Shown in pieces: positions 1-37,788 of a DNA stretch of 64,000 nt (positions within the stretch are counted from its first letter, which is position 1; the number at the start of each line of letters is the position of its first letter). The position numbers were made by a program, and so were the translations under genes. Below the pieces are notes generated by a model. It saw nothing but the letters and a program-made list of their open reading frames with translations, searched no databases and was not told where the DNA came from. Source of the DNA: an uncultured Myxococcales bacterium (GTDB lineage Bacteria > Myxococcota_A > UBA9042); assembly GCA_903840165.1 (NCBI GenBank), contig CAIMEY010000089.1, positions 20,313-84,312 of the forward strand. The letters run 5' to 3'.

Positions 1-3000
1 ATCTGCACAAAAACGCGCCGTGTCACGCACCCGCGGGTCCTGCCCGTGGGCGGCAAGGCGTTGAATACCTTGCGCCAAATCGGCTTGAGAAACGCGGTCA
101 TGGACAGCATCGAGCCACAATCGCCACAAATCGCGCTGGGCAAAGGACCATGTCGAGGAGAATCCCACGTGCTTGCGGGCATCAAACGCCGGTCGGACCA
201 AATCAGCGAGGTTCGTGCCAAATTCTTGCGCCAGAATCGCTAGTTGTTCAGCCTGCGGGTCGACTTCGCTGACCCTAGGCACCGGGGACAAATCGTGCCC
301 AAGGTTTGCTGCCAAGGCACGCACAGACTGCATCAAAGCCCCGTCCGGGCCAGCGATTTTTGCCTCCAGCGCCGCGACAACGGCTGCATCGACGGCCATC
401 GCCGCCCCACTACTGCTTGCCGCAGCCCCGCCCAAGGACCAGCCACGCTCAGCGGCAATGGCGGTCACGAATTGATCAATCCGTTGAACCGCTTCGGCCT
501 TATTGGCTGCCGGTGCCACGGCGACAGTGCCCAGGGCCCCGCCGCGCCCCGACTGACCGTCACGGCCTTCGACCGCAAGAAAATCAAAGACATGAGCCTG
601 CGCTGGTGCAGCCAAGTTCCACGTGTCCGTCAAATGCCCGGCCAGTTCCTTACGAGTCCAGCCGCTACGTGCGAAAAGCTTTTTAATTGCTTCATCTTGC
701 GCAGCACGGAGGTACCGTCCAGGCGCCTGGTATGTGCCGGCCCTTTTGGCGAGTTCGGCCGTGAGCGCTGACAAAGGCTTTTCATGGGCCCCGTCCATGG
801 CACCAGCCTCAAATTCTGACGTAATATCAAGGAGAACCTGGTTGCGTCGCGACGAAACGCCATCGAACAATTCGTCAATGGTTTCCTGATCCCGCAGTTG
901 GTCCGGGCGAACGCGGGCCTGCAATGCGAGCAGACTGCGCAAGGACCGGGCAACGTCCGGCCCAACGTCGGTCACGGCGACCGTGCCACGCGACGGCTGC
1001 GCTGCTGCCGCTTGGATAGGTAATGGGGCAACCGCTGACGATTCAATCGCTTTTGCCTGAGCGGCGGGTGCTTCCACTGCGTCGATGGACGTCGTGACCT
1101 CGGGCCAATCGGCCGGTTCGCCCGCCGCGTCGCGCAGGAAGATCGTCTGGATATCCGCTTCGGCATTGAGGATTTGCACGCCAGCGCTATTTCCCTCCAG
1201 CGAGGTGCGCGCCATGTTGGCCAAGGTTGGCTGATAGCCCACGCCGACTTCGAGCAACCGGCGTACGCCCAGGCCACCCGATTGCTCAGGCGCGACAAGG
1301 ACTTCCTGGGTCTCAATCCAGCGCACGGGACTAGCGAACTGCCACGCCAGCAGTTCGACCAATAGCAGACGGGCCAAGGTCGGAGCTTGGGCCTGATGCG
1401 CCGGCAAATCACGCAATACTTCAAGCAGTTGTGGCGACCCTGTGGCAGCGTGCACCGCGGCAATAAAGTCACGCTCTAGGCTGAACGGCAGCGGCACGAG
1501 GTTGGGCACGTAGCGGTGGATGAGTCGCTCGGGCGGCATGGTCTTGGGCAGCCGCTGGTCCAGCACCGCGCGGAAGGCTGGCACGCCGTCACGCAACACC
1601 TCAGAATGGAAAGGAACATCGATGCCCGGCACTTCCACCCAAGCCGGCCTATCGCCGCGGGTCCGCTCCGCAAGGGCCCGCTGCAGGTGGGCCAGCGCCG
1701 CAACACGCCCTGTCACGGAATACTGGCGATTGCGCACGTTGTAGTTGACAATTTGGACGAATTCGCCGCTTTCCTGCCTCACCTGCGCGACCAAAGCCTC
1801 GGCAGCAGCATGGTCTAAACCTGCGAGATTGGGGCGAATTACCCCCATGCGATAGCCACTCTCGCCACTGGCATCCCGAGGCACCAGCGTATGCATCGCT
1901 AGGCCACGCTGGTAGACGATCTCTACGACCGATTCCAACGGCAAAACGCCCACGTAGGCGGCAAGGGCGTTGTACTCGCCGACGCTATGGCCACAAGCGA
2001 CCGCCGCTTCATCGAGGACGCCGGCTTCACGCATTTCAGCCACTTGGGCCTGCGCCAACACCGCCATCGCGACCTGGGTGAACTGCGTCAGGTTCAGCAC
2101 GCCTGAGGCCAGCAGCCAACGCCGCCCGGACACTACGATTTCTTTGGGATTTTCGCGCACAACTTGCAAAATGGAAAAACCGAGCTCGCGACGTGTGAAA
2201 GCATCTGCCTGATCCCAAACCGATTTTGCCGCCGGCGACCGCTGGTATCCATCCTGGCCCATGCCCTTCTGTTGAATGCCCTGACCGGGAAAAACATAAG
2301 CCGTTCGGGGAGGTAGAACGCTAGCCGTCGCACGCACGACCGACTGGTACTGGCCGTCCTGCAGGGCGGAGACTAGGCACTCGCACTGCGTCTGGCCGTC
2401 CTTAGCACCGATCCGCGCGACTTCAAAGCGTAAATGCGCCCCGGGAGCGACGGGGGCCAAGAAGGCAGCCTGAACCTCCGTCAACCGAGTTACGTCGCCA
2501 CCAGCCAGCGATTCAGCAATCGCTGCATGGGCTTTGGCCGACGTCCACATGCCATGGACGATGGCGCCTGGCAGCCCAGCCAAGCGGGCCGCCGTATCGC
2601 TGCGGTGGATGGGGTTGCGGTCCCCACCGGCCTGAGCAAAGGCGTGCATGGCCAGGGGCGCGCGATCCGCTTTGCGCATCAAGACCTTTCGCGCAACCGC
2701 AGCTCCCGTCTTTGGCGGAGGGGCCAACAGGGACAGAACTTGGGTCACCGGGTGCACGGTGTGGGCATCGTGGCTAGACCACTGCACCTGGCCAACAACC
2801 GTTTCGCCATCAAAAACGGTTGTATAGCAAGCCGTTAAGCTATTGTTATTCCTGGCGATTTCCCGAACGGCATTGCCAGTGAAGCGCAGCGTCGTGCCCG
2901 GCTGCAGGGGCGTGTTTAGGCGCAGCCAAGGCTGTTCGGTCAGCAAGGAAACAGCGGCGGCATCCGGCAAGAAGACTTCCTGCTCTAGGGGCAGGTGTTC

Positions 3001-6000
3001 TCGCAATGAGTACGCGGTATTGCCAAAGTGCCCGCGGACGAAAAACTGCGAGCGCAGCTCGGCTGCCAGCACATCGCCGGCCCGCAGCTCGGCCTGAACG
3101 TGGATGGTTCTACCGGTGGCGGCGTCATCGACGCGAGTTACAAAAGCGCTTGACTTCCATGCGTTTAGACCCTTGCTATACAAGCCTTGAAAGCCTGCAT
3201 GAAGGGCAATTTGCTGGTCCAGGTGAACCAGATTGAGCAAGCCCCCGGCCAGTTCGGGCGCGGCCAGCACCGAGAACATGGGCTGCCACACCAGGGAGAA
3301 GGCGTAATCCGGTGAAATCCCTTGACTTGTGCCGCCCGAGGTCAGCGCCGCGTGGGCGAGCGCCAAGGTGGGCTGGATGACAACATCGGCCTGCGCACGG
3401 AAAAACAGAGGCGTCGCCTGCAGTTGTCCGCCAAAGAGGCCAGTGCGGTAAAAGCCCAGGATGCCTTCTGCAGCCTCTGCTTGGCTGAGGTGAACGGTCC
3501 ATGTGCCGGTGTCGCCGTCGGCCAGGTCGAGGTTCCACGTCAATTGCGCTGTAGGTCCGCCGTCTTGTGCGGGCACTTGCAGTTCAACCCGAACGCGTTC
3601 GCCAATGCAAGTCAGCTCAACGGAATCAGACAATTCCGAAGATATTCTAGGCGCTTGCCAGCGTAGTCGCGCAATACTGCCGCCCTCAGCGTGGTGCAAC
3701 TCCACGGTCGCGCCCGCCTGTCCGTGCAGCAAGGCCTTCAAAGGATTGCGAATTAGGCGCCGACCTGACACCCACGCCGGGGCCAAGAGGCACGCAGCTA
3801 GGGCCGGTGAGACCTGCGCGGCAAGCCACGACTGCCACAGTTCTGCTTGAACAGACTCAGAAAATCGCAAAATCGTCTGGCCGGGCTCAGACTCAACCCG
3901 CACTCGACGGTCAAGCGGGGCATGAGCCACGACGGGCAAGCGTCGGTCCGAAGCATGAACAACAGCTGCCCCATCTGCCTGCAATTGCGCAACAATTGCC
4001 GCGTCAAAGCGCCCAAGAAGCCCAGCCACCGGTTCATCGACGCGGACACCGGCCACGGCCTCGGGCCCAGGAATCACCAGCACCTGATCTGCTGTAAACT
4101 TAGGGTGTTGGGCCTGCCACAGCGAATCCGACTTGAACCAACGGCGCACATCGGCGTCGATTACCGGAACGAAGGGCACTGGCTTGCCCGGGCGTCCGCA
4201 AACCTCGTGGAAATACAAACGATCCGCCGGATGCAGCGGTTCGGTCGCCAGCTGTGGGCAGACCGCGAGCAAACGGTCCAAGACGACCTCAGGCGCGTCA
4301 AAGTCGGCCCAATCTCGCCACACGCGCTGCACAGTCGCCTGATCCGTTTGAGCAAATCGCGCCTGGGCGCGGTCCACCAAGTCTGCCATGCGCTCGCGCC
4401 AAGACCGGTCCAGCCACGGCCCGTCTTCATACAGATCGCCCGAGCCGATGGCCGTCAATTCCTTGAAACGTTGGAGAACTTCCCACCACGTCATCTGCTG
4501 GAGTTCGCCGAAATAGGGCTTGGCCGTGGGCGCCAACGCCGCAATAATTTCGTCATGCCGCTGCCGAACGACGTCCGCCTGGCCCGCTACTTCGTCCAGG
4601 AGCCGACCGCAGCGCGATGCCGAATTGTCCAAATAGTGAATATCTGCGTTGAGTTGACTGCGCCCTGACGTGACACCGCCGCGTACTTGCCCGGCCAGCA
4701 CCCACTCCGGACTCCCTGTGGCCGCCGCCAGGGCCTTTTTGACATCTGCTGTGGCCGTCGCCTCCAAACAGGTCATCGCCAGGGTGCCGAGAAAGACCGC
4801 GTCCACCGGCATCGCCGGCAGTCCTCTTCGCAAAGACCAGGAACCAGTGAGCAATTCGACTGCACGGGCCTCCGTGGCGATACCGCCGCCGACGCACAGC
4901 ACGAGATTGGGCTGCCGACGAATCAAGTGGTACGTATCTACGAGCAATTGCTCAAGATCCTCCCAGCTGTGGTGACCTCCGGCCTTGCCGCCCTCAAGGT
5001 GCAATCCCAGCGTATGATGGCTTGCCGCCTTGGCAATTCGGATGACTTGCTCCACTTGCGCCGTCGTCCCCGGCTTGAAGGCGTTGAGCCAGATGCCGGC
5101 ATCTCGAAATTCATCAAGCAAAGCAACCGCTTCATCCACCTCCGGCAGACCGGCGCTGATGGTCACACCCGCCAGCGGCAGACCGGCGCGACGGGCCTTT
5201 TGCGCCAGTTGACCGCGCTTGACCTGCATATCCCATAGGTAAGGGTCTAAAAACAGGGCGTTTAACGTGAACTCTCGGCCCGGCTGCAACAGTTGGCTGA
5301 GTTCGTCCATCCGCTGCTGCCAGATCTTCTCAGTCACTTGGCCACCGCCGGCCAATTCTGCTGTAAATCCAGCGTTTGCGGCCGCGGCAACGATTCCGGC
5401 ATCGGCAGTGGTCGGCGTCATACCTGGCAAAATGATGGGCGATTGCCCCGTCCAGCGGCTATAGCGATTGTCGACGAGCTGGCGACCATTGGGCAACTGC
5501 AGCAAATTCGGCATAAACGCTTGGTAGTTCAGCGGCGTCTCACCGCTCGCCCCGGCCGAAAATAGACGCCGCCGTCCGACCGGCACCGCAATGGCCACCG
5601 TCTCGATGCCGCGTCCGCGCAAGTTGGCCGCAGTGAGCTTGGCCACACCGTCGCTTGGCCCCAAATCGACAATGAATTCAGGATTATGTTGCATGGCGAC
5701 CGCAGTGACGGTCTCGGTCCAGCGCACGGGCATCAGGAACTGATCCTCGACCAGCCATTGCGTCAAGTGGTTGGCATCACGCGCTTCTTGGTAGGAAGTC
5801 GCCAGAGAAGGCGAATACACCGGCAAGCGCAATTTCTGTGGATCGACGGAAAACCCAATATCAGCAATGGTTTGCCGCATCGCCGCGTGGCCCGCTTGCA
5901 TGTGCGGGCTGTGAAACGGCGCACCGACGGCGAGGTATTCCCATGTCGGCACAACGACTTTGCCAGGTCGGCGCCCTTCCTTCTTGCGTTTGAGCTCCTG

Positions 6001-6843
6001 CGCCGCCTGCGTGCTCAGCTGCTTGTCCAGGCGCTGCAAGGTCGGCACAGGACCGCTGACAACGAAGCGCTGAGCGGTGTTATACAGTGCAATTACAGCG
6101 GCTTGTCCAGGGTCAAGATTGCGATTGACCGCGTCCAAATGTGCCTGCAGTTCGCTGTCACTCAGCCCCGCAACGGCGGCCATGGGCGTGGCGTCGCCCT
6201 GGGGCCCCAGCCCTTTGCCCGACTGCGCCATGTGCAGCCCCTGCCAGATAAAATACTGCAAATACGCCAGGGTACGCGGCAGTGATACGGCAGCAGCCTC
6301 GGTACTCTCAGAAATGAGCAGCGCCGGCATCATGCCCTGCGAATGCCCGAGAACGGCAGCTATTTTTCCGGAGCGCCACACGGCGTCCAAACCGCGCTCC
6401 GCTGCGTCATTCCATCGCAAGATTTGGCAAAGAAAAATAAGCGGTTGCGAGATTTGTGACGAGGCGAGGTAACCGGCGTCTGGACGCAACTCCGCCTGCA
6501 GAATCCAGGCCCGCAGGTCGAGGCCAAAACCGTATAACCCACTGAATTGAAATACGTCTGCAGCAATCCAACCCTGCATAGCTGCACTGGCCGCCTCGAT
6601 CCACGCGCGAGCAGATGCCGATTCCTGCCATAACTCAACAAGTTCTGCGAATGCAGGCCCGCCCTGCCCGGCAAATGCGATCGCAACCCGGCGATCGCCA
6701 TGGACCAGGATCTGCAGCAAGCTCTCGAGTTCATGGGCAGAATGCGGCACACCGTGAACCAGGTGCTGCGCCAGGGGGCCTCCCACGGCCGGTGAGCTAC
6801 GTACGCCTTGAGAATTCGCGACACCAGACGATGAATGAACCAT
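1..6843 (-). CDS. fas: Type-I fatty acid synthase-like megasynthase (FAS-I architecture). The 5' 2281 codons are in the window and the 3' end runs off it.
   Basis: Absent from the ORF track because the frame stays open to the window edge. By-eye reverse-complement translation from the ATG (complement of 6841-6843) reads MVHSSSGVANSQ... with no stop seen. Motifs occur in FAS-I order: acyltransferase GHSQG (6334-6348); FMN/TIM-barrel enoyl reductase HLEGGKAGGHHSWEDL (~4954-5001); MaoC-type dehydratase GGDRNPIH (2605-2628); malonyl/palmitoyl transferase GHSVGE (1975-1992); ACP-like DGVSSRRNQ (~838-864). The KR and KS domains are expected beyond position 1. Confidence 0.85.
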   Translation of the reverse strand, partial: MVHSSSGVANSQGVRSSPAVGGPLAQHLVHGVPHSAHELESLLQILVHGDRRVAIAFAGQGGPAFAELVELWQESASARAWIEAASAAMQGWIAADVFQFSGLYGFGLDLRAWILQAELRPDAGYLASSQISQPLIFLCQILRWNDAAERGLDAVWRSGKIAAVLGHSQGMMPALLISESTEAAAVSLPRTLAYLQYFIWQGLHMAQSGKGLGPQGDATPMAAVAGLSDSELQAHLDAVNRNLDPGQAAVIALYNTAQRFVVSGPVPTLQRLDKQLSTQAAQELKRKKEGRRPGKVVVPTWEYLAVGAPFHSPHMQAGHAAMRQTIADIGFSVDPQKLRLPVYSPSLATSYQEARDANHLTQWLVEDQFLMPVRWTETVTAVAMQHNPEFIVDLGPSDGVAKLTAANLRGRGIETVAIAVPVGRRRLFSAGASGETPLNYQAFMPNLLQLPNGRQLVDNRYSRWTGQSPIILPGMTPTTADAGIVAAAANAGFTAELAGGGQVTEKIWQQRMDELSQLLQPGREFTLNALFLDPYLWDMQVKRGQLAQKARRAGLPLAGVTISAGLPEVDEAVALLDEFRDAGIWLNAFKPGTTAQVEQVIRIAKAASHHTLGLHLEGGKAGGHHSWEDLEQLLVDTYHLIRRQPNLVLCVGGGIATEARAVELLTGSWSLRRGLPAMPVDAVFLGTLAMTCLEATATADVKKALAAATGSPEWVLAGQVRGGVTSGRSQLNADIHYLDNSASRCGRLLDEVAGQADVVRQRHDEIIAALAPTAKPYFGELQQMTWWEVLQRFKELTAIGSGDLYEDGPWLDRSWRERMADLVDRAQARFAQTDQATVQRVWRDWADFDAPEVVLDRLLAVCPQLATEPLHPADRLYFHEVCGRPGKPVPFVPVIDADVRRWFKSDSLWQAQHPKFTADQVLVIPGPEAVAGVRVDEPVAGLLGRFDAAIVAQLQADGAAVVHASDRRLPVVAHAPLDRRVRVESEPGQTILRFSESVQAELWQSWLAAQVSPALAACLLAPAWVSGRRLIRNPLKALLHGQAGATVELHHAEGGSIARLRWQAPRISSELSDSVELTCIGERVRVELQVPAQDGGPTAQLTWNLDLADGDTGTWTVHLSQAEAAEGILGFYRTGLFGGQLQATPLFFRAQADVVIQPTLALAHAALTSGGTSQGISPDYAFSLVWQPMFSVLAAPELAGGLLNLVHLDQQIALHAGFQGLYSKGLNAWKSSAFVTRVDDAATGRTIHVQAELRAGDVLAAELRSQFFVRGHFGNTAYSLREHLPLEQEVFLPDAAAVSLLTEQPWLRLNTPLQPGTTLRFTGNAVREIARNNNSLTACYTTVFDGETVVGQVQWSSHDAHTVHPVTQVLSLLAPPPKTGAAVARKVLMRKADRAPLAMHAFAQAGGDRNPIHRSDTAARLAGLPGAIVHGMWTSAKAHAAIAESLAGGDVTRLTEVQAAFLAPVAPGAHLRFEVARIGAKDGQTQCECLVSALQDGQYQSVVRATASVLPPRTAYVFPGQGIQQKGMGQDGYQRSPAAKSVWDQADAFTRRELGFSILQVVRENPKEIVVSGRRWLLASGVLNLTQFTQVAMAVLAQAQVAEMREAGVLDEAAVACGHSVGEYNALAAYVGVLPLESVVEIVYQRGLAMHTLVPRDASGESGYRMGVIRPNLAGLDHAAAEALVAQVRQESGEFVQIVNYNVRNRQYSVTGRVAALAHLQRALAERTRGDRPAWVEVPGIDVPFHSEVLRDGVPAFRAVLDQRLPKTMPPERLIHRYVPNLVPLPFSLERDFIAAVHAATGSPQLLEVLRDLPAHQAQAPTLARLLLVELLAWQFASPVRWIETQEVLVAPEQSGGLGVRRLLEVGVGYQPTLANMARTSLEGNSAGVQILNAEADIQTIFLRDAAGEPADWPEVTTSIDAVEAPAAQAKAIESSAVAPLPIQAAAAQPSRGTVAVTDVGPDVARSLRSLLALQARVRPDQLRDQETIDELFDGVSSRRNQVLLDITSEFEAGAMDGAHEKPLSALTAELAKRAGTYQAPGRYLRAAQDEAIKKLFARSGWTRKELAGHLTDTWNLAAPAQAHVFDFLAVEGRDGQSGRGGALGTVAVAPAANKAEAVQRIDQFVTAIAAERGWSLGGAAASSSGAAMAVDAAVVAALEAKIAGPDGALMQSVRALAANLGHDLSPVPRVSEVDPQAEQLAILAQEFGTNLADLVRPAFDARKHVGFSSTWSFAQRDLWRLWLDAVHDRVSQADLAQGIQRLAAHGQDPRVRDTARFCAD
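2820..2831 (+). repeat. TTGTATAGCAAG motif copy inside the FAS-I gene
   Basis: Exact 11-mer at 2821-2831, followed by the AT-rich CCGTTAAGCTATTGTTATTCC. Confidence 0.8.
3172..3184 (-). repeat. CTTGTATAGCAAG motif copy (reverse orientation) inside the FAS-I gene
   Basis: The + strand reads CTTGCTATACAAG. This is the only minus-orientation exact copy. Confidence 0.8.
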
Positions 6844-7068: not shown

Positions 7069-9459
7069 TCATAGCCGCATGCGCAAGAGTTCTTCTGGAT
7101 CCGACTTGCATAAGTTCGCAAACTGCATGGACATTTCACCTCGAGCGACCTTCCCCGGTCCCGTGCGCGCCAATGGCTCTGGACAAAACCGCCATATCAA
7201 CGGGCGCTTGTAGGGGGCCACCCGCCCCAGAGCCTGCTCGAGCAAGGGCCAGCACTGCTCCGGCCGCAGCGCAGTGACTAGCCAGGCGCCGACAATCTGC
7301 CCGCGCTCAAAGTCCGGCACGCCGCAGACAATCGCCTCGTCAATGCCAGGGATGCCTATCAAAACCGTTTCAATTTCTTGAGGATAGATGTTCTCGCCGC
7401 CGCTGATGATGATGTCGCTTCGCCTCGCTGCGATCGTAAGCGCGCCACCTTGTAAGTTCGCCCAGTCGCCCGTGTCCAGCCAACCATGGCCAACCTCAGA
7501 TTCTGGCTGCACTTCTTCTCCAGGCAGTTGCGCGTAGCCCGTCATTGATTGCCAGGTGTGCGCGATCAGCCGGCCATACCCATCGTTATCAGGTTGGTCA
7601 ATGCGCAGTTGGACGCCAAGCAGGGGGTGAAGCGTGTTGTCGGCCACGCCGGTAATCGCCACCTGCGCGCAAGTCTCTGTTTGGCCGTAGGTTTGCCTTA
7701 GGGGCAGTCCACGACGGCGGCCCTCGTCAAGCCACTCAGGCGGCACGGGCCCTCCGCCCACCAGCACGCAGCGCAGCGGAGAGTCGATAACATCTTTTGA
7801 TTGTTGGAGAAATCGTTGCAGTTGCAGGCCGACGATGGACGCCTGGGTGAGGGCAAAGCGCTCGCTCAAAGTATGTATAGCAAGCCCTGAACTACCTGAA
7901 CTTACAACCAAAGTTCCGACACCGACCGCCGCACGCGCCGCCACCATCAGCCCGCCCACGTGGCACAGGGGCAGAGGGCACAGCCATACATCATCCGCCG
8001 TGGCCCCGACCGCATCCAGGCTCGCCGCGACTGCATACCAAAGGCTAAAGTGACTAATTCGACACAGTTTTTGCCGACCAGTGGTCCCTGACGTCGGCAG
8101 CCAGAGTGCGTCGGCCGTCGCGTCCATGGCCGGCATGACATAGGAAATCGGCGAGGGTTCAAGCTGTTCGGGAGCAATGACGAGACCGTGGGCATGTGGG
8201 TGTCGCCGGTCGGTCAACAAGACCCGGGGACGCGTTCGCGCCAGTAATTCGTCTACTTCTGCTGTAGTTGCGCGGGGATGGATGGGCAGCCACACCGCCC
8301 CGAGTCGCCATGCCGCCCATTGTGCGGGCAGCAGCAACGCCGCATCATCGGCCCAAGCTGCCACGATTTCGCCAGCTAACACGCCGGCTTGACTGATCAA
8401 TCGAGCGATCGCATGGCCTTGTGCATCTAGCTGCTTCCAGGTCCAATCGATGTTGCGGTCGGCGTCGCGCAGCGCCAAACGGTCAGGCTGATACCGCGCG
8501 GCCCGGGCAAGCCCGTCGGACATTCGCCACATCATTTGCAATGTCGGCAGGTTATCAGACATGCGCAGCTGCCCTGCGGGCTGTCCCGGCACCCCAAGAC
8601 CACATGCGCGCAACCTCCCAGGCGCGACCGCCGCCAGCGCGTGCAGGGCGCTGCGACCAACCGGCCCATCAAAGAGCGAACTAATGACAAGGTCACAGGA
8701 AAGCTTGGACAAGGCTTGGGCAAACTGGAGAAATCGGCCAATCGACCCGAGCAAAGCGGGCTTGACGACCGCCACCGCCACGGCACCTCGAGCGGCGAGG
8801 GCAAGCACAGATTCTGGCGAACTATCAAGGAGATCAGCAGCGAGGGGCACGGCGCTTGAATTCGGCCAGTCCGCTACGGCCGTCGGGTCCTCTACATATT
8901 CAACGCCTTGCGCTGCCTCAAGGAGGGCCGCCAGATCAGCAGGCGGTCGTCCCTGCCAGCCGCCGTTGACGTCAAGCCGCAATTGCAGGCCGTTGGCACG
9001 AACCATCGCAACAAATTCAGCAAGTTCTTTGGGATCGGCGCTGGTCCACTTGACCTTGACGTGGCGATCCCCCGCGGCTGCCAGGGACGCCCAAATCGCG
9101 GGGTCGAAGGTTGCTGCCACGACGGTCTGAGCGACAACCTCTGGACGCGGTGGCACCGTACTATCCGGATATTGCAGATGAAGCCACTGGGCAAGGCCCA
9201 TGTTGGCCTGACACGCCTGCAGAGCATGAAGCGCAACGTCCCGGGCAAAGGCAACGATTGTGGCGTGGTGTCTGGAATCACGAGGCAAGTCAGGCGCTTC
9301 GCCGGCGCAGAGGTGAATGCCGTCGCTCACCAAGTGCAGATCGCTTCCCGTAGATCCCGTTTCTCCACGGCTACTTGCAAGCAGCGCCCCTTCGCCGTGC
9401 CAACGCTGCGCGGGCAACCAGGTAACCTGTGGCGCGTCAGGCCCGACTAGCACAGCCAC
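7069..9459 (-). CDS. menE: Fusion of an o-succinylbenzoate synthase-like enolase-superfamily domain (MenC) with o-succinylbenzoate-CoA ligase (MenE)
   Basis: 796-aa ORF. The N-terminal ~300 aa carry KVKW, LRLDVNGGW, VEYVEDP and VVKP, as in MenC/MLE-type enzymes. The C-terminal ~490 aa carry the AMP-binding motifs LPTSGTTGRQK, TYGQTE, GWLDTGD and SGGENIYPQEIE. No stop codon lies between the two halves. Confidence 0.8.
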   Translation of the reverse strand: MAVLVGPDAPQVTWLPAQRWHGEGALLASSRGETGSTGSDLHLVSDGIHLCAGEAPDLPRDSRHHATIVAFARDVALHALQACQANMGLAQWLHLQYPDSTVPPRPEVVAQTVVAATFDPAIWASLAAAGDRHVKVKWTSADPKELAEFVAMVRANGLQLRLDVNGGWQGRPPADLAALLEAAQGVEYVEDPTAVADWPNSSAVPLAADLLDSSPESVLALAARGAVAVAVVKPALLGSIGRFLQFAQALSKLSCDLVISSLFDGPVGRSALHALAAVAPGRLRACGLGVPGQPAGQLRMSDNLPTLQMMWRMSDGLARAARYQPDRLALRDADRNIDWTWKQLDAQGHAIARLISQAGVLAGEIVAAWADDAALLLPAQWAAWRLGAVWLPIHPRATTAEVDELLARTRPRVLLTDRRHPHAHGLVIAPEQLEPSPISYVMPAMDATADALWLPTSGTTGRQKLCRISHFSLWYAVAASLDAVGATADDVWLCPLPLCHVGGLMVAARAAVGVGTLVVSSGSSGLAIHTLSERFALTQASIVGLQLQRFLQQSKDVIDSPLRCVLVGGGPVPPEWLDEGRRRGLPLRQTYGQTETCAQVAITGVADNTLHPLLGVQLRIDQPDNDGYGRLIAHTWQSMTGYAQLPGEEVQPESEVGHGWLDTGDWANLQGGALTIAARRSDIIISGGENIYPQEIETVLIGIPGIDEAIVCGVPDFERGQIVGAWLVTALRPEQCWPLLEQALGRVAPYKRPLIWRFCPEPLARTGPGKVARGEMSMQFANLCKSDPEELLRMRL
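7874..7916 (+). repeat. TGTATAGCAAG motif copy plus hairpin inside the menC/menE gene
   Basis: Exact 11-mer at 7874-7884. Direct repeat CCTGAACT at 7886-7893 and 7895-7902. Inverted repeat GAACTT-N7-AAGTTC at 7898-7916. Confidence 0.75.
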
Positions 9460-10544: not shown

Positions 10545-11390
10545 CTAGGGCACGCGCGAAAACTTCTTAAAATCCGGTGGCCTGCGCTCCAGATAGGCAT
10601 TGCGCCCCTCTTGGGCCTCTTGGGTCATGTAGAACAGCAACGTAGCATTGCCGGCTAGTTCTTGAACGCCGGCCTGACCGTCCACCGCCGCGTTGAAGCT
10701 CGACTTGAGGCAGCGCAAGGCAAGCGGTGAATGTTCCAAGATTTTTTGGCACCACGCCACCGTTTCCGCCTCCAACTGCGCGAGCGGCACAACGGTGTTG
10801 ACAAGGCCCATATCTAGGGCCTCTTGAGCGGAATATTGACGGCACAAGTACCAGATTTCTCGCGCTTTTTTCTGCCCAACGACGCTGGCCAAGTAGCCCG
10901 CGCCAAAGCCGCCATCAAAGCTGCCGACCTTGGGCCCCGTTTGCCCAAATACGGCGTTGTCGGCGGCAATGCTTAAGTCGCACACCAAGTGCAGGACGTG
11001 GCCGCCACCGACCGCGTAGCCCGCCACCATGGCGATCACGGGCTTGGGGAGGGTGCGGATATCCCTTTGAAGATCAAGGACATTTAGGCGCGGAACTTTG
11101 TCGCCGCCGACATAGCCCTGCTCGCCACGGACGCGCTGGTCGCCCCCGGAACAGAAGGCTTTGTCGCCGACGCCGGTGAGAATGATCACGCCCACGCTGG
11201 CGTCATCGCGCGCTTTGGCAAACGCATCAATGAGTTGCGCGGTTGTCTCGGGCCGAAAGGCGTTGCGCACTTCGGGACGGTTGATGCTGATCTTGGCGAT
11301 GCCATCCCAGGTTTCATACAAGATATCGCTGTATTCAGCGCTTTTGGTCCACAGAAATGGTGGTGTTGCGCTTGGCATTTTCGACTGCAT
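10545..11390 (-). CDS. menB: 1,4-dihydroxy-2-naphthoyl-CoA synthase (crotonase fold)
   Basis: 281 aa. [28 protein letters not shown] and GGDQRVRG...GYVG are typical of MenB, and the length matches. Confidence 0.93.
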
Positions 11391-11743
11391 AGCTGGCCTT
11401 CAAGTTCATGTAAATTACGACGTTTTTCAGGCCCGCGGGGCCAACTTCCCTGCGGCACAAGGCCAACGCCAAGTTTCACCGCCCACTGACAACTAGTACC
11501 TCAGACCCGAAGTTCCTTCCGGGTTAGGGGTACAGTGTTTGCATCTAGTTTCACGGGCCCGCGGACTCTCCCTTCGTTGGGCCGTGTCCCCGACCGAAAG
11601 CGCACAAAACCCTGTGCTTTCCGGGAGCCCGCAAAGCACTTAGCGTACTTGGACTAGGCTAACGCAGCGTCAGGCCGATTGACAACCGCTACGGGTGCAC
11701 CACCTATTTTGGCTAGGTTTTCGCGTGCGCAATCAGCGGGAGG

Positions 11744-12091
11744 TCAATCACCATCGTCATCGTCGCCGCCACCACCTTGACCATCAAGGCCAGATTGCGT
11801 GCCGGTGGGACCCGAGGAATTCTCTTCCGGCGGGCTCGGTTCCGTGACCTTTTCTTCTTCTGCAGCGGCCGCAGCTGGGGCGACAGAACCGCCACTCGGA
11901 GCGGGCGCAGCGCCTTGCGGGACTTGCCGGCCCGTGTAATACGCGTACGGGGAAGGCGGTGGGTAGTCGTCCTGCACCTGACCAGCGGCGCTACCGCAGC
12001 CACCCGCGCACAACGCGACAAGCCAAAGCGTCGATTTTTTCAGGTATTGCACGCTGTTTGCGGATTGCTGATGCATCGAATGTACTTCCAT
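11744..12091 (-). CDS. Small secreted acidic Pro/Ala-rich lipoprotein of unknown function. An alternative start is at 12076.
   Basis: The signal peptide plus lipobox-like LVALCAGGC is followed by low-complexity sequence and a poly-Asp tail. The gene is divergent from the HupE-like gene. Confidence 0.5.
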   Translation of the reverse strand: MEVHSMHQQSANSVQYLKKSTLWLVALCAGGCGSAAGQVQDDYPPPSPYAYYTGRQVPQGAAPAPSGGSVAPAAAAAEEEKVTEPSPPEENSSGPTGTQSGLDGQGGGGDDDDGD

Positions 12092-13336: not shown

Positions 13337-13360
13337 TCGCGAAATTACAGCGAATTTTCC

Positions 13361-13395
13361 TTGTATAGCAAGCCTTTAACTGCTTGTTCCTCAAG
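13361..13395 (+). repeat. TTGTATAGCAAG motif copy plus hairpin in a convergent intergenic region
   Basis: Exact 11-mer at 13362-13372, with a CTTG-TTCCT-CAAG hairpin at 13383-13395. Confidence 0.75.
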
Positions 13396-24801: not shown

Positions 24802-24820
24802 GGGCTTGTATAGCAAGCCC
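24802..24820 (-). terminator. Perfect 7-bp stem-loop GGGCTTG-TATAG-CAAGCCC abutting the glmU stop codon. It contains the 11-mer and is a candidate terminator or processing hairpin.
   Basis: Inverted repeat at 24802-24808 / 24814-24820. The glmU stop is the complement of 24821-24823. There is no U-tract on the minus strand, but the + strand has T-rich sequence downstream. Confidence 0.35.
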
Positions 24821-26239
24821 TTAATCTTTTGATTTCTTTCGCTTTTCATCGTCGCGCACCTGTTTTCGCGCCACCCAGCCTTCGATGGCCCGCTGCGGTG
24901 TCCGACTCAGCGCCAAGGCTCCTGCAGGTACGTCCTGCGTGATCGTGCTGCCCGCGCCGACGTAGGCCCCTTGGCCAACGGTGACCGGGGCTACCAGTTG
25001 CGAATCGCTGCCGATGAAGACGTCGGCCCCTAGGGTCGTGCGGTACTTGAATACCCCGTCGTAATTGCAGGTAATTGTCCCGGCACCGATGTTGCAGTTT
25101 GCGCCGATGTCGGCGTCGCCCAGGTACGACAAGTGGCTGGCCTTGGCCCCCGGCCCCAAGTTCGCCTTCTTGGTCTCGACAAAATTCCCAACCTTAACGC
25201 GCTCTTGCAGCACAGTCCCTGGACGCAAGTGGGCAAAGGGTCCGACATGGGCACCCGCGCCAATGGACGCCTCGGTTGCCACGGTATAGGGCAGGACGTG
25301 GGCCCCCGCCGCCACGGTGACGTCGGTCAGGACACAGCCACGATCGATGCGCGCCCCGGCCTCAATCTGCGTATTTCCGCGGAGTTCCACATCCATCCCC
25401 AGAGAGCAATCGGCCGCCAACTGCACGGTCGGTTCGATCCAGACGGCGTCCGCGTCGTCCATGCCCACCCCAGCGTGGAGGTGCGCCAGGGCCACCCGAT
25501 TGCGCAAGACGGTAGTCAATGCCGCCAGCTCAGCCCGGGAATTGACACCAGAAACTTCCATATTGTCATCAACTTGAAGCGCCACACCGCCTTGCCCCTG
25601 CGCCGCAGCCAGGGCGACCAAATCGGTCAGGTACAACTCGCCCTGGGCATTGTTCGGCTGGAGCTGGGTCAGCGTGTTCGCCAAGAAATCCGCGGATACA
25701 GCCATCATTCCGGCGTTGACGATGCGCAGTTGCCGCTCCGCCTCGGAGGCGTCCTTGTGCTCGACAACGCCCAGCATGTGCTGCCCGTCAGGGTGCAGCG
25801 CGACTCGGCCATATCCTGTAGGATCAGGCAGTTGCGCGACCAGGAGCGCCAATGGTGCCTTCTGCCGTACGGCCAGCAACGCGTCCAGAGTCTGCCAACG
25901 CAAAAGCGGAACATCCCCATAAAGAATCAAGACTTGCTCAGCATCCTGCCAGCCTTCCCGCGCGCACAGCACAGCGTGCCCGGTGCCATTGGGATTGGGC
26001 TGCTCGAGACAAACCGCTTGAGCCTGGTTGACTTGGGCCCACTGTGCCACGTAGGCCTGCACCGCCTCGCGACCGTGGCCCGTGACGACCACCATGCGTT
26101 TGGGCTGTAATTGCAAGGCTGTATTGAGTACGTGCCCCAACATCGGCGTCCCCAGCAGAGGGTGCAACACCTTGGGCAACGCGCTGTGCATGCGCTTGCC
26201 TTGGCCGGCCGCCAAGATCACCACAACGAGTCCAGACAT
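24821..26239 (-). CDS. glmU: Bifunctional UDP-N-acetylglucosamine pyrophosphorylase / GlcN-1-P acetyltransferase
   Basis: N-terminal VVILAAGQGKRMHSALPKVLHPL, with C-terminal left-handed beta-helix hexapeptide repeats. Confidence 0.93.
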   Translation of the reverse strand: MSGLVVVILAAGQGKRMHSALPKVLHPLLGTPMLGHVLNTALQLQPKRMVVVTGHGREAVQAYVAQWAQVNQAQAVCLEQPNPNGTGHAVLCAREGWQDAEQVLILYGDVPLLRWQTLDALLAVRQKAPLALLVAQLPDPTGYGRVALHPDGQHMLGVVEHKDASEAERQLRIVNAGMMAVSADFLANTLTQLQPNNAQGELYLTDLVALAAAQGQGGVALQVDDNMEVSGVNSRAELAALTTVLRNRVALAHLHAGVGMDDADAVWIEPTVQLAADCSLGMDVELRGNTQIEAGARIDRGCVLTDVTVAAGAHVLPYTVATEASIGAGAHVGPFAHLRPGTVLQERVKVGNFVETKKANLGPGAKASHLSYLGDADIGANCNIGAGTITCNYDGVFKYRTTLGADVFIGSDSQLVAPVTVGQGAYVGAGSTITQDVPAGALALSRTPQRAIEGWVARKQVRDDEKRKKSKD

Positions 26240-27726: not shown

Positions 27727-29067
27727 ATGCAGGTGGCACTGTTCGCAGATCGGTTTGAAGGCTGGTTAGCTTCTGATTTTGAAGCCTTTTCACCAGCCAA
27801 CTGGAGCTCGAACCGCTTCAACCGTCCTCGGTCTGCGGTTCGCGATCGATTGTTGTCCCTGCTCGAACAGAGCACAAAGACAGCCAATTTGCCCGCCCTA
27901 GGCCTAACGCTGTGGGCTTCGCGCGCCGACCCAAGTCTGATCAACAACCACAAGGTATCTCGACTTCGCGCTGTTATTACACGTAGTTCCGAGCGTCGCG
28001 CCGAATTGGAAGCCGCGCAGTCCCAACTCGATGCGACGCAAGTGGACCGCTTTGGTGCCTGGCTGGGCCTAGAAGTCGACCACGAGCGCGTTCTTGTTCA
28101 GCTTTCGGTTCCGGCTGAGGCGGCGATCGACCGCGAGTCCCTGCCCTCGCACCTCGGACTGCTGCCGAGCCTGAGCGATGGTGAACATCTGCGCCATGGC
28201 GAAACTGCTGTAGATTTAGGGGTTTGGCTGGACGCCTTGGCCCAGACGGAGGCCCCAGTCGACCTAGCCCTGGCGTGGATCCTGCCCCTCGATCAGGCCC
28301 TGCAAGGATCTGGAACTGCTGAAGAAGTCCGTAGATTTGTCGAGAAGATGCTGCCCGCCTTGGTGGCTGTGATCGGCGGTGATCCAGCGGCCATTGTGTG
28401 GGAATCCGCGGAACATTCTGAATCTACGGCGAATTCTTCTGAATCGGCGATGGCCGAATTGAGCGGCGACGGCCAAAAAGAGGCTTGTATAGCAACGAGC
28501 CAAGCCCCCAATCAGAATGACGAATTTCGTCCAGCCACCCCAATTGCCCCACCGCGGCGCCCTGGGTCCTACCGGCCGGCCTTTGCCCCGGCGCGTCCCA
28601 CGGCCGTTCCCGCCGATCGGGCACCGATCGAGCGCATTGTGCCACCCACCTGGAGGCCAGAAACCACTGATATCGGTCGGCAATTGCGTCAGGCGCACGA
28701 GGAACGCGACCGCCAACAAGCGCGAAGCTACCCGCCGGCCGCGCCGCAACGACCGCAATCGCCTGACCGAGGACCGCGCCCGCAGCCTCCTACCCAGGAG
28801 GGACGTTCGAATAACTACCAGTCTTCACAGACGAAATCGGGCGGTTTTCCCGATCGCCGTGGCAGTGGTCGGCCCTTTGAACTCGGCCCCGATCCAAAGG
28901 CGGGCCAAGCCGTGACCACGTTGGCTCCCGGCGCTCGCGTGCGCATGCAGGCGGGGCTTTGGCTGGGCAAGGAAGGGGTAGTCGTTGAAATCAAAGGCGA
29001 TACCGTGCATGTCCAGCTGGGCGCCCTCACCGTCAAGGTGCCCAAGTCGGGCGTGGCGCTCGCCTGA
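27727..29067 (+). CDS. Hypothetical protein: unknown N-terminal domain, Pro/Arg-rich linker, KOW/SH3-like C-terminus
   Basis: 446-aa ORF with coding-like composition. The C-terminal GARVRMQAGLWLGKEGVVVEIKGDTVHVQLGALTVKV resembles the KOW-like element of MutS2-type proteins. I recognise no family for the remainder. Confidence 0.6.
   Translation: MQVALFADRFEGWLASDFEAFSPANWSSNRFNRPRSAVRDRLLSLLEQSTKTANLPALGLTLWASRADPSLINNHKVSRLRAVITRSSERRAELEAAQSQLDATQVDRFGAWLGLEVDHERVLVQLSVPAEAAIDRESLPSHLGLLPSLSDGEHLRHGETAVDLGVWLDALAQTEAPVDLALAWILPLDQALQGSGTAEEVRRFVEKMLPALVAVIGGDPAAIVWESAEHSESTANSSESAMAELSGDGQKEACIATSQAPNQNDEFRPATPIAPPRRPGSYRPAFAPARPTAVPADRAPIERIVPPTWRPETTDIGRQLRQAHEERDRQQARSYPPAAPQRPQSPDRGPRPQPPTQEGRSNNYQSSQTKSGGFPDRRGSGRPFELGPDPKAGQAVTTLAPGARVRMQAGLWLGKEGVVVEIKGDTVHVQLGALTVKVPKSGVALA
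28486..28531 (+). repeat. One-mismatch motif copy (TGTATAGCAAC) plus hairpin inside the ORF at 27727-29067
   Basis: Motif at 28486-28496, with the palindrome GACGAATTTCGTC at 28519-28531. Confidence 0.6.
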
Positions 29068-32356: not shown

Positions 32357-32372
32357 CAATATGCGCATGTTG

Positions 32373-34324: not shown

Positions 34325-34378
34325 AACCGGTGCAATTCTGGGTTTCGCGACATAGTGAGGCGTCAACTTAGCGATATT

Positions 34379-35361: not shown

Positions 35362-35958
35362 ATGGAGACGGTCGCAGCCATGCCCGAACCCGAGTCCGCA
35401 GCCGCGCAGCAAGAAGCCCGCCTGGCCGAGCGATTTTGCGCGGGCGATCGGCAAGCGTTCGCGGACCTGGTGACGATGTGGCAAAAGCCTGTGTATTACG
35501 CGATTTGGCGTTATGTCCGCCACGAAGAAGACGCGCGCGACCTGACCCAGGCCACCTTTGCCAAGGCTTGGCTGCACGCTGCCACGTTTCGCGGGGAAAG
35601 TAGCCTCAAGACTTGGTTATTCCGCATCGGCATCCACTTGGCCCTCAATCACCTGCGCGACCAAGGTCGCTGGAAGCAAGCGGGCGTGGAAGTGGATGAA
35701 ATTGCGCACGATCCTGCACTGCTAGAGCAACTGGATGAGGCGGACACGGCCCAGCAACTGCGCCTAGCGGTTGAGGAATTGCCGCCCAAACAACGATTGG
35801 TGGTTGAACTGCGCGTGCAGGAAGAGCTTTCGTTTCGCGACGTCGCGCAACTGGCTCAATGCAGCGAAGATGCCGCCAAGGCCAACTTTCAACATGCAAT
35901 CAAGAGATTGCGTTCGCTGCTGGGCAACCGCGGCGGGCGCTTGGAGCAAGGCCCATGA
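35362..35958 (+). CDS. ECF (sigma-70 group IV) RNA polymerase sigma factor
   Basis: Region 2: DARDLTQATFAKAW...LKTWLFRIGIHLALNHLRD. Region 4: LPPKQRLVVELRVQEELSFRDVAQL. The start is set at Met 35362. The track start at 35176 adds 62 non-homologous residues. Confidence 0.85.
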   Translation: METVAAMPEPESAAAQQEARLAERFCAGDRQAFADLVTMWQKPVYYAIWRYVRHEEDARDLTQATFAKAWLHAATFRGESSLKTWLFRIGIHLALNHLRDQGRWKQAGVEVDEIAHDPALLEQLDEADTAQQLRLAVEELPPKQRLVVELRVQEELSFRDVAQLAQCSEDAAKANFQHAIKRLRSLLGNRGGRLEQGP

Positions 35959-36662
35959 AGCCGACTATCCCACCGACGGGCGAGATTCCACTGTGTACGA
36001 GCGATGTTGCCTTACACAAGCCCAGCAACGTGATTCCACTCTTTGGCACCAAGGCTCGGCAGCTAGCGGCCGACTCGTGCGCTAATCTTGCTGATTTGTT
36101 GCCGCTTTGGGCCAATAGCTCCTTGGCTGGAGCCGAGGCAGAGCGCGTCCAGCGTCATGTGGCAACCTGCGCGGCCTGCCAGGCGGAAGTGTCTGCAATA
36201 ACGGCCCTTCTGGCCGAGATTGGCGCCGACGCAGGGGATGGCCCGGCACACGAGGACGCGTATTGGACAGCGCTGACGGCGGACATTCTCGCTGCCACGG
36301 CTGCTGTCCCTCAAGCGCCTGAAACAAAGGCGCCTTGGTCTGTTTCACAGCCGGTGATGAGGTCCAACGCTGCGACTGCGGCTCGGCAGCGACGCTGGTG
36401 GCATTTGTCAGCGGTTGCAGGTAGTGCCGTTGCTGCGGCCGCGGCGCTGGCCTTGGTGGTCGCTAAGCCGTGGACGCCTGAGTTGAGACCGGTGGCGACC
36501 GCGGCGACCGGCGACCACGGCGCAAACTGGTATGAATTGCCTGTGTTACCTCTTGATGATGATTTTGCGGCTGGCGATGACGACCCGATGGGTACCGTGG
36601 ATGACTTGGACGACAACGAGTTGGAACTCGTAGACGCCGTTCTAACCGACGATGGAGTCTAA
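35955..36662 (+). CDS. Anti-sigma factor (zf-HC2 type), single TM
   Basis: Its ATG overlaps the sigma gene stop (ATGA). It has the HVATCAACQAEV zinc-finger motif and a central TM segment WWHLSAVAGSAVAAAAALALVVA. Confidence 0.7.
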   Translation: MKPTIPPTGEIPLCTSDVALHKPSNVIPLFGTKARQLAADSCANLADLLPLWANSSLAGAEAERVQRHVATCAACQAEVSAITALLAEIGADAGDGPAHEDAYWTALTADILAATAAVPQAPETKAPWSVSQPVMRSNAATAARQRRWWHLSAVAGSAVAAAAALALVVAKPWTPELRPVATAATGDHGANWYELPVLPLDDDFAAGDDDPMGTVDDLDDNELELVDAVLTDDGV

Positions 36663-36705
36663 GCTTTTTTACAAAGGCAAGTCTGATGGCTGCCGATGGG
36701 ACGCT

Positions 36706-36750
36706 CGCCGTCGGAACGGTCACCGTCGGAACGGTCGCCGTCGGAACAAA
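36706..36750 (+). repeat. Three tandem 15-bp units CRCCGTCGGAACGGT between the anti-sigma gene and the Spy-like gene
   Basis: Units at 36706-36720, 36721-36735 and 36736-36750. The last unit ends in AAA instead of GGT. Confidence 0.85.
36714..36736 (+). promoter_or_regulatory. Candidate ECF-type promoter (GAAC-N16-GTC) upstream of the Spy-like gene
   Basis: GGAAC at 36713-36717, a 16-nt spacer, then GTC at 36734-36736. It lies ~75 nt upstream of the ATG at 36811 and sits within the tandem repeats. Confidence 0.28.
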
Positions 36751-36810
36751 GCGGGGCAACAGCCCCATGGCTCCCCGGTTCTTGGGCTGCACGAAGGTTA
36801 GGTTGCGAAC

Positions 36811-37422
36811 ATGCGCTCAATTTCAATAGCTTGCTGGCCCCTCTTGATCACGTTGGGGTTGCCGGCCTTGGCCTTTGGCCAGGCTCCACCGCTTGCACCA
36901 CCGGCCGCCCACAGCGCTCCCGCCGCGACGACGCCAGCTCGCCCCGGTCCTGCCCCGGCAAAACCACTTGATCCCAAACGGCAATCACAGACGCCTCAGC
37001 AGATTCGCGAAACGATGCACCAGAGCATTCGCGCGTGGCGCAAGCAGCGCCTGGCCGACGTGGTGCAACCCGATGCACCGACAGCCTTGAAGATCCAGGA
37101 TATTTTGGACCAACACGCCATTCAGACCATGGCATTGGGCGATGAGCTGCGCAAAACGAAAGCCGAACTGACGCGCCAACTCAAGTTGCCAGCCCCAGAC
37201 CTCGCGTTGCTGACCCGGCTCACGGACCAACTGCTGGCCGTGCAGGCCAAAATCGCCAAGGTGGAAGAGGACCGAAGCACGGCCGTGCGTAAAGTCCTTA
37301 CTCCCGTTCAGTTTTCCCGTTATCTGATTGCGTGGCCCAAGATCAACCGGCAAATCCAGGAAAAGATCTACCAGGCGCTGGCCAAGATCGGTGACCGGAC
37401 GGGGACGCGCGACGAGTTTTAG
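36811..37422 (+). CDS. Periplasmic Spy/CpxP-like (LTXXQ-motif) protein
   Basis: Signal peptide MRSISIACWPLLITLGLPALAFGQ, a helical Q/K/L-rich body, and LTPVQFSRYL (LTXXQ). Confidence 0.5.
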   Translation: MRSISIACWPLLITLGLPALAFGQAPPLAPPAAHSAPAATTPARPGPAPAKPLDPKRQSQTPQQIRETMHQSIRAWRKQRLADVVQPDAPTALKIQDILDQHAIQTMALGDELRKTKAELTRQLKLPAPDLALLTRLTDQLLAVQAKIAKVEEDRSTAVRKVLTPVQFSRYLIAWPKINRQIQEKIYQALAKIGDRTGTRDEF

Positions 37423-37436
37423 CCGCCAATTAGGCA

Positions 37437-37483
37437 TGTATAGCAAGGGTCTATCGCCTCGTTCTGAAACACGAATCTGCGAC
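37437..37483 (+). repeat. Copy 1 of a ~47-nt repeat starting with TGTATAGCAAG (possible small RNA or regulatory element)
   Basis: TGTATAGCAAGGGTCTATCGCCTCGTTCTGAAACACGAATCTGCGAC. Internal hairpin TCGT/ACGA at 37459-37474. Confidence 0.7.
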
Positions 37484-37582
37484 GCTGACGCCCTGACACC
37501 TCGCCCAAACTGCCCTGCTCGATGACGCAACGGGTACGAGGGGCTAGGCCAACCGCTCGGTGAATTGGCACCCAATCACGCG

Positions 37583-37629
37583 TGTATAGCAAGGCTCTAT
37601 CACCGTGTTCTAAAACGGGAATCTGCGAC
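37583..37629 (+). repeat. Copy 2 of the ~47-nt repeat
   Basis: TGTATAGCAAGGCTCTATCACCGTGTTCTAAAACGGGAATCTGCGAC, about 40/47 identical to copy 1. Its hairpin CCGT/ACGG (37603-37618) is at the same offset with compensatory changes. Confidence 0.7.
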
Positions 37630-37751
37630 CGACATCCTCCCGCGACCCCTCAGCCCGTCGCCGCCCAGGGACCTGTCGGCAAGATGCTTGTCGGTAACTT
37701 CGCCGCGGGCCTGAGCGGTGAGTCGAGCGCCAATTCGCCGCCAGAGGGCCT

Positions 37752-37788
37752 TGTACACCAAAGGTCTATCCCCTTGTTTTCTTAGGGG
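37752..37788 (+). repeat. Copy 3 (degenerate) of the repeat; its hairpin overlaps the stop codon of the Cys-rich gene
   Basis: TGTACACCAAAGGTCTATCCCCTTGTTTTCTTAGGGG. Hairpin CCCCT/AGGGG (37770-37788) at the equivalent offset. Confidence 0.55.

Follow-up and report, generated by a model that had tools for sequence, protein, structure and literature searches.

Hyperabundant, lineage-specific DNA words are rare, and the uptake signal sequences (USS) of Haemophilus and DNA uptake sequences (DUS) of Neisseria, Chi, the FtsK-orienting polar sequences (KOPS), and Ter each exposed a machine that reads the chromosome. Chi sites in E. coli are spaced a few kilobases apart. In RTP-Ter, a strong dimer site is paired with a weak one, and this layout gives the sites their polarity. 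HIP1, GCGATCGC, is a hyperabundant word of cyanobacteria that is found in coding and noncoding DNA and maintained by selection, and its function is unknown (PMC5861425). Here we describe an 11-nt word, TGTATAGCAAG, in a 64-kb stretch (the window) of the housekeeping chromosome of an uncultured member of the Myxococcota, with a GC content of 61%. The word is the core of a motif family that is real, strongly nonrandom, and lineage specific, and its anatomy matches no single known class. It unites traits that are not found together in any known class: it is as long as an uptake or terminator site and built like one, is spaced like Chi, has a strong strand skew, and has copies in essential genes that were made by substitution only.

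We found seven exact copies of TGTATAGCAAG on the two strands of the window, at 2821, 7874, 13362, 24807, 37437, and 37583 on the + strand and at 3172 on the − strand. All seven had been named in the original prediction, which was made from the sequence alone and had called the word strongly overrepresented. Markov models of order 1 to 4 predict only 0.006 to 0.012 exact copies, so the excess is about 600- to 1,000-fold, and the word is the commonest 11-mer of the window even though it is AT rich. Allowing at most one mismatch gave nine matches, where dinucleotide shuffles predict 0.46; in 100 shuffles the count never exceeded two. Allowing at most two mismatches gave 18 matches against 6.6 expected. 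The density in the window is seven exact copies in 64 kb, and about one copy per 6 to 9 kb.

The two one-mismatch matches lie at 28486 and 30459, both on the + strand. Flanks were scored from −12 to +42, with the core excluded, against a matrix derived from the exact copies. This scoring supported degenerate copies at 37752 (three core mismatches), 42666 (two), and 11386 (three), and more weakly at 28486 (one), and brought the accepted copies to 11. The one-mismatch copy predicted at 28486 was thus recovered, with a flank match that is weak but above background. Of the two degenerate copies proposed earlier, the one at 37752 was retained and the one at 53438 to 53449 was dropped: its flank score of −43.9 is at background level, and it is probably a chance match. 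The same is probably true of 30459, whose flanks also score at background. Two types of 3' flank recur among the copies, CCnTTAA (type A; 2821, 7874, 13362, and 24807) and GGTCTAw (type B; 3172 and three 65-nt modules). The accepted copies are the following.

2821 to 2831, + strand: exact core with the type A flank CCGTTAA, in an extended motif from about 2809 to 2872; inside the type I fatty acid synthase (FAS) gene (− strand), antisense; reads ..SLTACYTTV.., with the rare codons TTA and ACA.
3172 to 3182, − strand (the sole − strand copy): exact core with the type B flank GGTCTAA; inside the FAS gene, sense; reads G-LYSK-GLN.
7874 to 7884, + strand: exact core inside the MenC-MenE fusion gene (− strand); reads ..G-LAIH-T.., with the rare codons ATA and TCA.
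11386 to 11396, + strand: candidate degenerate copy, TGCATAGCTGG, with three core mismatches, at the 5' edge of a menB-like gene; its flank score of 14.5 is equaled by about 1e-4 of random positions.
13360 to 13395, + strand: exact core at 13362 to 13372, in a 107-nt convergent spacer with a HupE-like gene (+) on one side and an RNase T-like gene (−) on the other; a second dyad, CTTGTTCCTCAAG (13383 to 13395), lies 23 nt downstream, where other copies show a weaker TTGT box.
24802 to 24823, + strand: exact core at 24807 to 24817, with GGG/CCC flanks that give a perfect 8-bp stem; the stop codon of glmU (− strand) is the motif TTA at 24821 to 24823.
28486 to 28496, + strand: one-mismatch core, TGTATAGCAAC, inside a hypothetical + strand gene (27850 to 29067), sense; reads CIAT.
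37419 to 37483, + strand: 65-nt type B module with an exact core at 37437 to 37447, 15 nt past the stop codon of a Spy-like periplasmic protein gene.
37565 to 37629, + strand: 65-nt module with an exact core at 37583 to 37593, 80% identical to the module at 37419 to 37483.
37734 to 37798, + strand: degenerate module with the core TGTACACCAAA at 37752 to 37762; its distal box provides the stop codon (37782 to 37784) of the converging repeat-protein gene.
42658 to 42695, + strand: degenerate copy with the core TGTATATCAGG at 42666 to 42676, inside a sulfite-oxidase-like gene (− strand).

The consensus of the 11 copies begins with G-C-T at −3 to −1, continues with the core T-G-T-A-T-A-G-C-A-A-G, and is followed by SS, YT, and a series of downstream positions. 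All but one of the 11 copies have A at +17, and all but one have A or T at +18, which gives a TAA box at +16 to +18. Positions +24 to +27 read T-G-T/A-T (a TTGT box at about +23), with G25 in 10 and T24 in 8 of the 11 copies. More distally, A is conserved at +33 and A-A-T at +38 to +40 (a GAAT box at about +38). The conserved consensus is therefore one sided and extends to about +40, in line with the earlier claim that similarity continues downstream of the word; upstream of the core, further patches rich in AT lie near −17 and −7. With the C and T that frequently precede it, the core forms the near-dyad CTTG-TATAG-CAAG. Past about +20, the copies outside the three modules show modest similarity. 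In leave-one-out scoring, the flanks of copies 2821 and 13362 reach 4 to 10, and those of 3172, 7874, and 24807 stay close to background.

The three modules at 37.4 to 37.8 kb share one 359-nt convergent spacer, and the first two are identical at 52 of 65 positions. The DNA between the modules is as dissimilar as shuffled sequence (55 matches, against 55.0 ± 2.3 after shuffling). Therefore, a simple tandem duplication was rejected, the similarity being limited to the 65-nt modules.

The generic dyad CTTG-N5-CAAG occurs 14 times in the window, against about 3.4 times at other spacings. The 14 sites include those at 11776, 13383, 19962, 20348, 21261, 31598, 38235, 50756, 57395, 61308, and 61616, and 11 of the 14 are not motif copies. 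The CTTG-CAAG dyad is also raised at a spacing of 8 (n = 9), so codon periodicity may contribute to the dyad enrichment.

Five of the 11 copies lie inside genes: 2821 and 3172 in FAS, 7874 in MenC-MenE, 28486 in the hypothetical gene, and 42666 in the sulfite-oxidase-like gene. As predicted for four copies within open reading frames, the exact and one-mismatch genic copies are translated as ACYT, LYSK, LAIH, and CIAT, in four different combinations of frame and orientation. The genic copies contain codons seldom used in this genome (CTA, 0.05; TTA, 0.04; ATA, 0.04; and TCA, 0.07 of their synonymous families). Copies 42666 and 2821 are identical at 28 of 38 nt, in different frames of unrelated genes. 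We compared the three exact genic copies (2821, 3172, and 7874) with protein homologues. At copy 3172, the segment ..hagfqglyskglnaw.. pairs with ..fpgadplk-kg-dvv.. of yeast FAS beta, with just two 1-residue gaps. The region of copy 2821 aligns to yeast FAS beta with one single-residue gap, and that of copy 7874 is gap free against five MenE homologues. An inserted motif of 20 to 50 nt would add 7 to 17 residues, and there was no such gain at any of the three sites.

These alignments show that the three exact genic copies arose by base substitution, against codon preference. Because no residues were added, insertion of the type seen with Rickettsia palindromic elements or miniature inverted-repeat transposable elements (MITEs) was rejected for these copies, and with it the earlier suggestion of a miniature in-gene insertion. 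Rickettsia palindromic elements do resemble the motif in that repeat copies lie inside open reading frames that stay open, but they add residues as in-frame insertions, and the motif copies do not. The absence of added residues also means that the word was imposed at the DNA level against coding preference. Thus, the conserved object is a DNA-level signal, neither peptide nor RNA. The original prediction had called it nucleic acid rather than peptide, and the four frame and orientation combinations and the rare codons agree with this. An invertible segment between the inverted pair 2821 and 3172 was rejected, because the opposite strand has stops in all three frames.

The copies are also unevenly placed. 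Intergenic DNA makes up 10.3% of the window and holds four of the seven exact copies (P = 0.003). Convergent spacers (675 nt, 1.05% of the window) hold three of the seven (P = 4e-5) and one degenerate copy. Divergent, promoter-bearing spacers (2,169 nt) hold none. The copies therefore pile up in the least constrained DNA, the convergent 3' spacers, and avoid promoter spacers; this spacer mapping bears out the prediction that copies outside open reading frames sit at gene 3' ends or in convergent spacers. Six of the exact copies are on the + strand and one is on the − strand, a skew that is not significant alone (P = 0.125). All four flank-supported degenerate copies are on the + strand, and with them the ratio becomes 10 to 1 (two-sided binomial P ≈ 0.012). 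The + strand bias claimed earlier thus holds when degenerate copies are included and not for the exact copies by themselves. Orientation is alike in the block of − strand genes (1 to 26 kb) and the block of + strand genes (26 to 37 kb), and the skew is therefore independent of the direction of transcription. Relative to local transcripts, about seven copies are sense and four are antisense. The copies are thus kept in one orientation whatever the local gene direction.

The GyrA protein encoded in the window is identical to a protein from ENA metagenome assemblies, and its nearest relatives (78 to 83% identity) include proteins named as coming from Myxococcota, Myxococcales, or Deltaproteobacteria metagenome-assembled genomes (MAGs). 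Copy 7874 is unchanged in L140, an independent assembly of this population that is 99.96% identical over 7.2 kb, and an assembly artifact is therefore excluded. The gyrA regions of four related lineages (L124, L128, L141, and L143; GyrA 78 to 83% identical, GC 62 to 71%), about 79 kb in all, contained no copy at one mismatch or fewer, where about 11 would be expected at the density of the window; two 2-mismatch matches are at chance level. Therefore, the word is specific to this lineage among the DNA sampled. When 185,579 species-representative genomes were scanned for the pattern TTGTATAGCAAGSSNYTANNNNNNTG, three single chance matches appeared, all in Bacillota MAGs, and a viral scan returned 10 single chance matches. 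A metagenome scan returned at least 120 loci, each with a single copy. Among the metagenome matches listed, none had a tetranucleotide profile like that of the window (the correlation reached 0.87 at most, whereas 5-kb pieces of the window itself gave 0.94 or more), and none had flanks resembling the window copies. The only literature matches to the word were coincidental primers and the SOS box of Leptospira.

One pair of metagenome loci (L019 and L111; GC 0.55), from an unrelated contig of lower GC content, carries a single copy, TGTATAGCAAGccgttaactacTTGaac, that reproduces the type A flank and the TTG box at +23. This likeness may be due to chance, since several of the positions are imposed by the search pattern.

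We suggest, with a probability of about 35%, that the motif is a polar protein-recognition signal on duplex DNA that serves a directional chromosome process. The near-dyad core, (C)TTGTATAGCAAG, would bind a protein dimer, and the weaker, helically spaced boxes on one side (TAA, TTGT, and GAAT) would confer direction. This arrangement, with weaker boxes on one side of the core, points to a dimer on duplex DNA whose additional contacts would make the site polar, and the strong-plus-weak layout may be compared with the one that makes RTP-Ter polar. Selection would maintain the sites for directional handling of the chromosome, in fork passage or arrest, by a DNA translocase, or in the processing of recombination ends. 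A site for a nucleic acid-binding protein was among the options offered in the original prediction; as a site for a sequence-specific DNA-binding protein, it remains the most general reading, and the evidence supports its DNA level and speaks against a peptide. If the polar signal is real, the pressure that maintains it outweighs codon preference within housekeeping genes. Should it extend across the genome, it would point to a new DNA-reading system in the Myxococcota, and the 22-mer GGCTTGTATAGCAAGCCTTTAA would be a simple handle for a protein pulldown. If the copies instead form a local cluster, they would be a chromosome landmark, for example, a terminus trap or loading site, in a phylum without any defined.

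Among known polar signals, Chi, KOPS/SRS, and "architecture imparting sequences" are like the motif in occurring in genes and spacers without indels and with a skew that is independent of gene direction, and the spacing of Chi is also similar. However, Chi and KOPS are G-rich words of 5 to 8 nt that are overrepresented a few-fold, whereas the motif has an AT-rich 11-mer core within 20 to 50 bp and is overrepresented more than 500-fold. With 11 invariant bases and conservation to about +40, the motif is not a short word of the kind recognized by RecBCD/AddAB or FtsK. Thus, of the Chi or KOPS option raised earlier, the skew fits, and the length and information content do not. Tus-Ter and RTP-Ter sites are closer in anatomy, being AT-rich, polar sites of about 23 to 30 bp with an invariant core of 11 to 13 bp, in or between genes. 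However, there are about 10 Ter sites per genome, in two opposed groups over hundreds of kilobases around the terminus, and the motif has about 11 copies in 60 kb. No terminator-protein gene is present in the window, and the polarity there is one sided. A parS centromere site was also rejected: the motif is a different sequence, the 16-bp parS palindrome TGTTNCACGTGAAACA is absent from the window at two mismatches or fewer (two matches at three mismatches are at chance level), and there is no parAB in the window.

Several points weigh against a polar signal. Pfam scans of the window revealed no candidate binding protein, and the orientation skew comes from 11 sites of a single window. The window has a GC skew of only −0.03, which by the third-codon-position skews mostly tracks the gene strand and does not define a direction of replication, and there is no GC-skew switch within the window. 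The described polar signals differ in scale, Chi and KOPS being much shorter and Ter far sparser than the motif. The sharp flank subtypes (CCnTTAA and GGTCTAw) and the 65-nt modules look more like descent by copying than like independent selection. Finally, a fork or translocase signal would not be expected to be enriched in convergent spacers, and the enrichment fits only if those spacers are taken as the least constrained DNA. We also consider it possible, if doubtful, that the motif belongs to an undescribed class, a long (about 20 to 50 bp), polar, genome-wide signal of one Myxococcota lineage, such as dense fork- or translocase-directing sites or an uptake or self-recognition sequence with a strand bias. 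HIP1 is a further hyperabundant and (near-)palindromic word that is found in both genes and spacers, but it is a perfect 8-bp GC-rich palindrome without orientation and occurs at far higher density.

The main rival is an uptake-signal-like "self" word, which we think somewhat unlikely. In this scenario, the DNA uptake machinery of a naturally transformable lineage would favor the motif, and biased uptake and recombination would spread point mutations that improve matches, in genes and spacers alike. The motif resembles USS and DUS in being a lineage-specific, hyperabundant word, much like the DUS "dialects," with a strong core, weaker AT-rich flanks that are roughly helically spaced, and a sharp ratio of exact to one-mismatch copies. 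Its genic copies, made by substitution only, fall in any frame at poorly conserved residues, and gene 3' ends are enriched in copies. Findlay and Redfield described the same substitution pattern for USS and DUS (PMC2817400). However, equal orientations would be expected if duplex fragments are taken up, and the motif is skewed 10 to 1. USS and DUS number hundreds to thousands of copies per genome. The core is longer than those of USS and DUS, and the density of about one per 6 to 9 kb is some 6 to 9 times lower than their density of about one per kb (PMC2817400). No competence genes were found in the window. Thus, for the uptake option of the original prediction, the anatomy fits and the orientation skew does not. 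If the motif were an uptake word, it would be the first uptake or self-recognition sequence outside the Pasteurellaceae and Neisseriaceae.

A site for a nonpolar global regulator or nucleoid protein is unlikely. It could be a LexA-like dimer on CTTG-N5-CAAG, a dyad that is enriched at a spacing of 5, or an IHF-like bender on TAGCAA-N4-YTA. The sequence TAGCAAnnnnYTA fits eight of nine specified positions of the IHF consensus, WATCAANNNNTTR, and the AT tracts are phased. The 13-mer CTTGCTATACAAG matches the LexA SOS box of Leptospira, TTTGCTATACAAA, at 11 of 13 bases, with the dyad geometry xTTG-N5-CAAx (PMC3789691). However, the Leptospira box lies in the promoters of a handful of repair genes. 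No motif copy in the window lies in a divergent or promoter spacer, which makes a repressor-operator role unlikely, and none lies beside recA, lexA, or uvr genes. The copies are also far too many, at a density far above that of any SOS regulon. In addition, 11 exact bases with an asymmetric center, together with the skew, exceed what a symmetric dimer or indirect readout would need.

Spread of a mobile module of about 65 nt by a single-stranded DNA transposase is improbable. Such a module would resemble repetitive extragenic palindromes (REPs), REPINs, and bacterial interspersed mosaic elements or MITEs, with a REP-associated tyrosine transposase (RAYT) or an IS200/IS605-type enzyme as the agent. 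It would explain the species specificity, the subfamilies, the location at 3' ends, and the strand bias. REPs, REPINs, and mosaic elements are likewise species specific, lie at 3' ends and in convergent gaps, and occur as adjacent copies, and the motif has discrete modules of about 65 nt, 80% identical and set in unrelated DNA. The two flank subtypes, the enrichment in convergent spacers, the relatives that lack the motif, and the inverted pair at 2821 and 3172, 351 nt apart, all point the same way. However, REPs are extragenic and form stable GC-rich hairpins with a GTAG or CGTC tag, their defining feature (PMC3733652). In contrast, nearly half of the motif copies (5 of 11) are genic, and the three exact ones add no length relative to homologues. 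The tag is missing, there is no stable conserved hairpin where such elements have a palindrome of 20 to 40 nt, and only 24807 and 13362 fold well. Between 2821 and 3172 lies ordinary FAS coding sequence without a bounded insertion, and no transposase or RAYT gene was found among the window genes by Pfam scans.

A signal at the level of RNA or transcription, whether a 3' untranslated region hairpin, a terminator, a small RNA, or a promoter, is still less probable. Copy 24807 is the best terminator-like match in its 20 kb, the spacer of copy 13362 folds better than shuffles (z = −3.2), and a T5·G9 wobble pair is possible on the motif strand only. However, the 65-nt modules have no notable fold (z = −1.0 to +0.35), folding of the aligned copies is weak (−3.3 kcal/mol) with little covariation, and the copies are divided, seven to four, between sense and antisense. 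The window has no Rfam match at gathering thresholds, and no tRNA or tmRNA. The reverse complement of the motif can be read as xGAACA-N17-TATACA with TGC ahead, and at copy 24807 it sits 56 nt upstream of the start of a 183-aa CxxCxxCC open reading frame (− strand). A promoter role is nonetheless unlikely, except possibly at 24807, because most copies lie inside genes or face into convergent genes. We rejected a promoter in either orientation, since the positions are wrong, no sigma-70-like match coincides with any copy, and a sigma-54 −24 element is absent by eye. Finally, chance, an assembly artifact, or adapter contamination has a negligible probability, with nothing counted in its favor and with the shuffles, the in-frame occurrence within conserved genes, and the copy in the independent assembly ruling it out.

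The gene order of the window was taken from the gene calls of the source contig and from Pfam scans. The type I FAS gene (− strand, 1 to 6843) is an open frame for the N-terminal 2,281 residues of a 3,352-aa protein. This FAS is of the fungal/CMN type, with SAT, MaoC dehydratase, acyltransferase, and KS domains, and matches the dehydratase domain of yeast FAS beta (PDB); such a gene is unusual for a Myxococcota chromosome. A protein search with the FAS fragment gave no matches. Next in order come menaquinone genes, including the MenC-MenE fusion, and HupE-like, RNase T-like, gyrA, and tldD/pmbA genes. The remainder includes a porin, glmU, secA, kinases, pairs of extracytoplasmic function (ECF) sigma and anti-sigma factors, a Cys-rich repeat protein, greA, and a CarH-like photoreceptor regulator. 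The fusion gene (7069 to 9459, − strand) joins MenC (o-succinylbenzoate synthase, MR_MLE_C) to MenE (AMP-binding), and no database relative from outside this population exceeds 44% identity.

A light-response-like cluster lies at 47572 to 51173, with a photolyase, an ECF sigma factor (49148 to 49885), and the CarH-like regulator (50085 to 51173), which is a MerR domain plus a B12-binding domain. The Cys-rich protein of about 1,050 aa (37782 to 40940, − strand) has at least eight Dicty_CTDC repeats, and its DNA contains 17 copies of a 30-nt unit, mostly 75 to 87 nt or about 150 to 160 nt apart. Three tandem 15-nt units, CCGTCGGAACGGTCR, lie at 36693 to 36747, between an anti-sigma gene (35955 to 36662) and an open reading frame (36811 to 37422) for a 203-aa Spy/CpxP-like protein with a signal peptide. 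The GGAAC repeats in these units resemble ECF −35 elements. Two other words recur in the window, the 11-mer CAAAGCGGGGC with five copies (36747 and 43667 on the + strand; 22413, 49875, and 55156 on the − strand) and the 12-mer GCGCTGCCTCAA with four (8910 and 22508 on the + strand; 10716 and 44898 on the − strand). Copies of both words are mostly inside genes.

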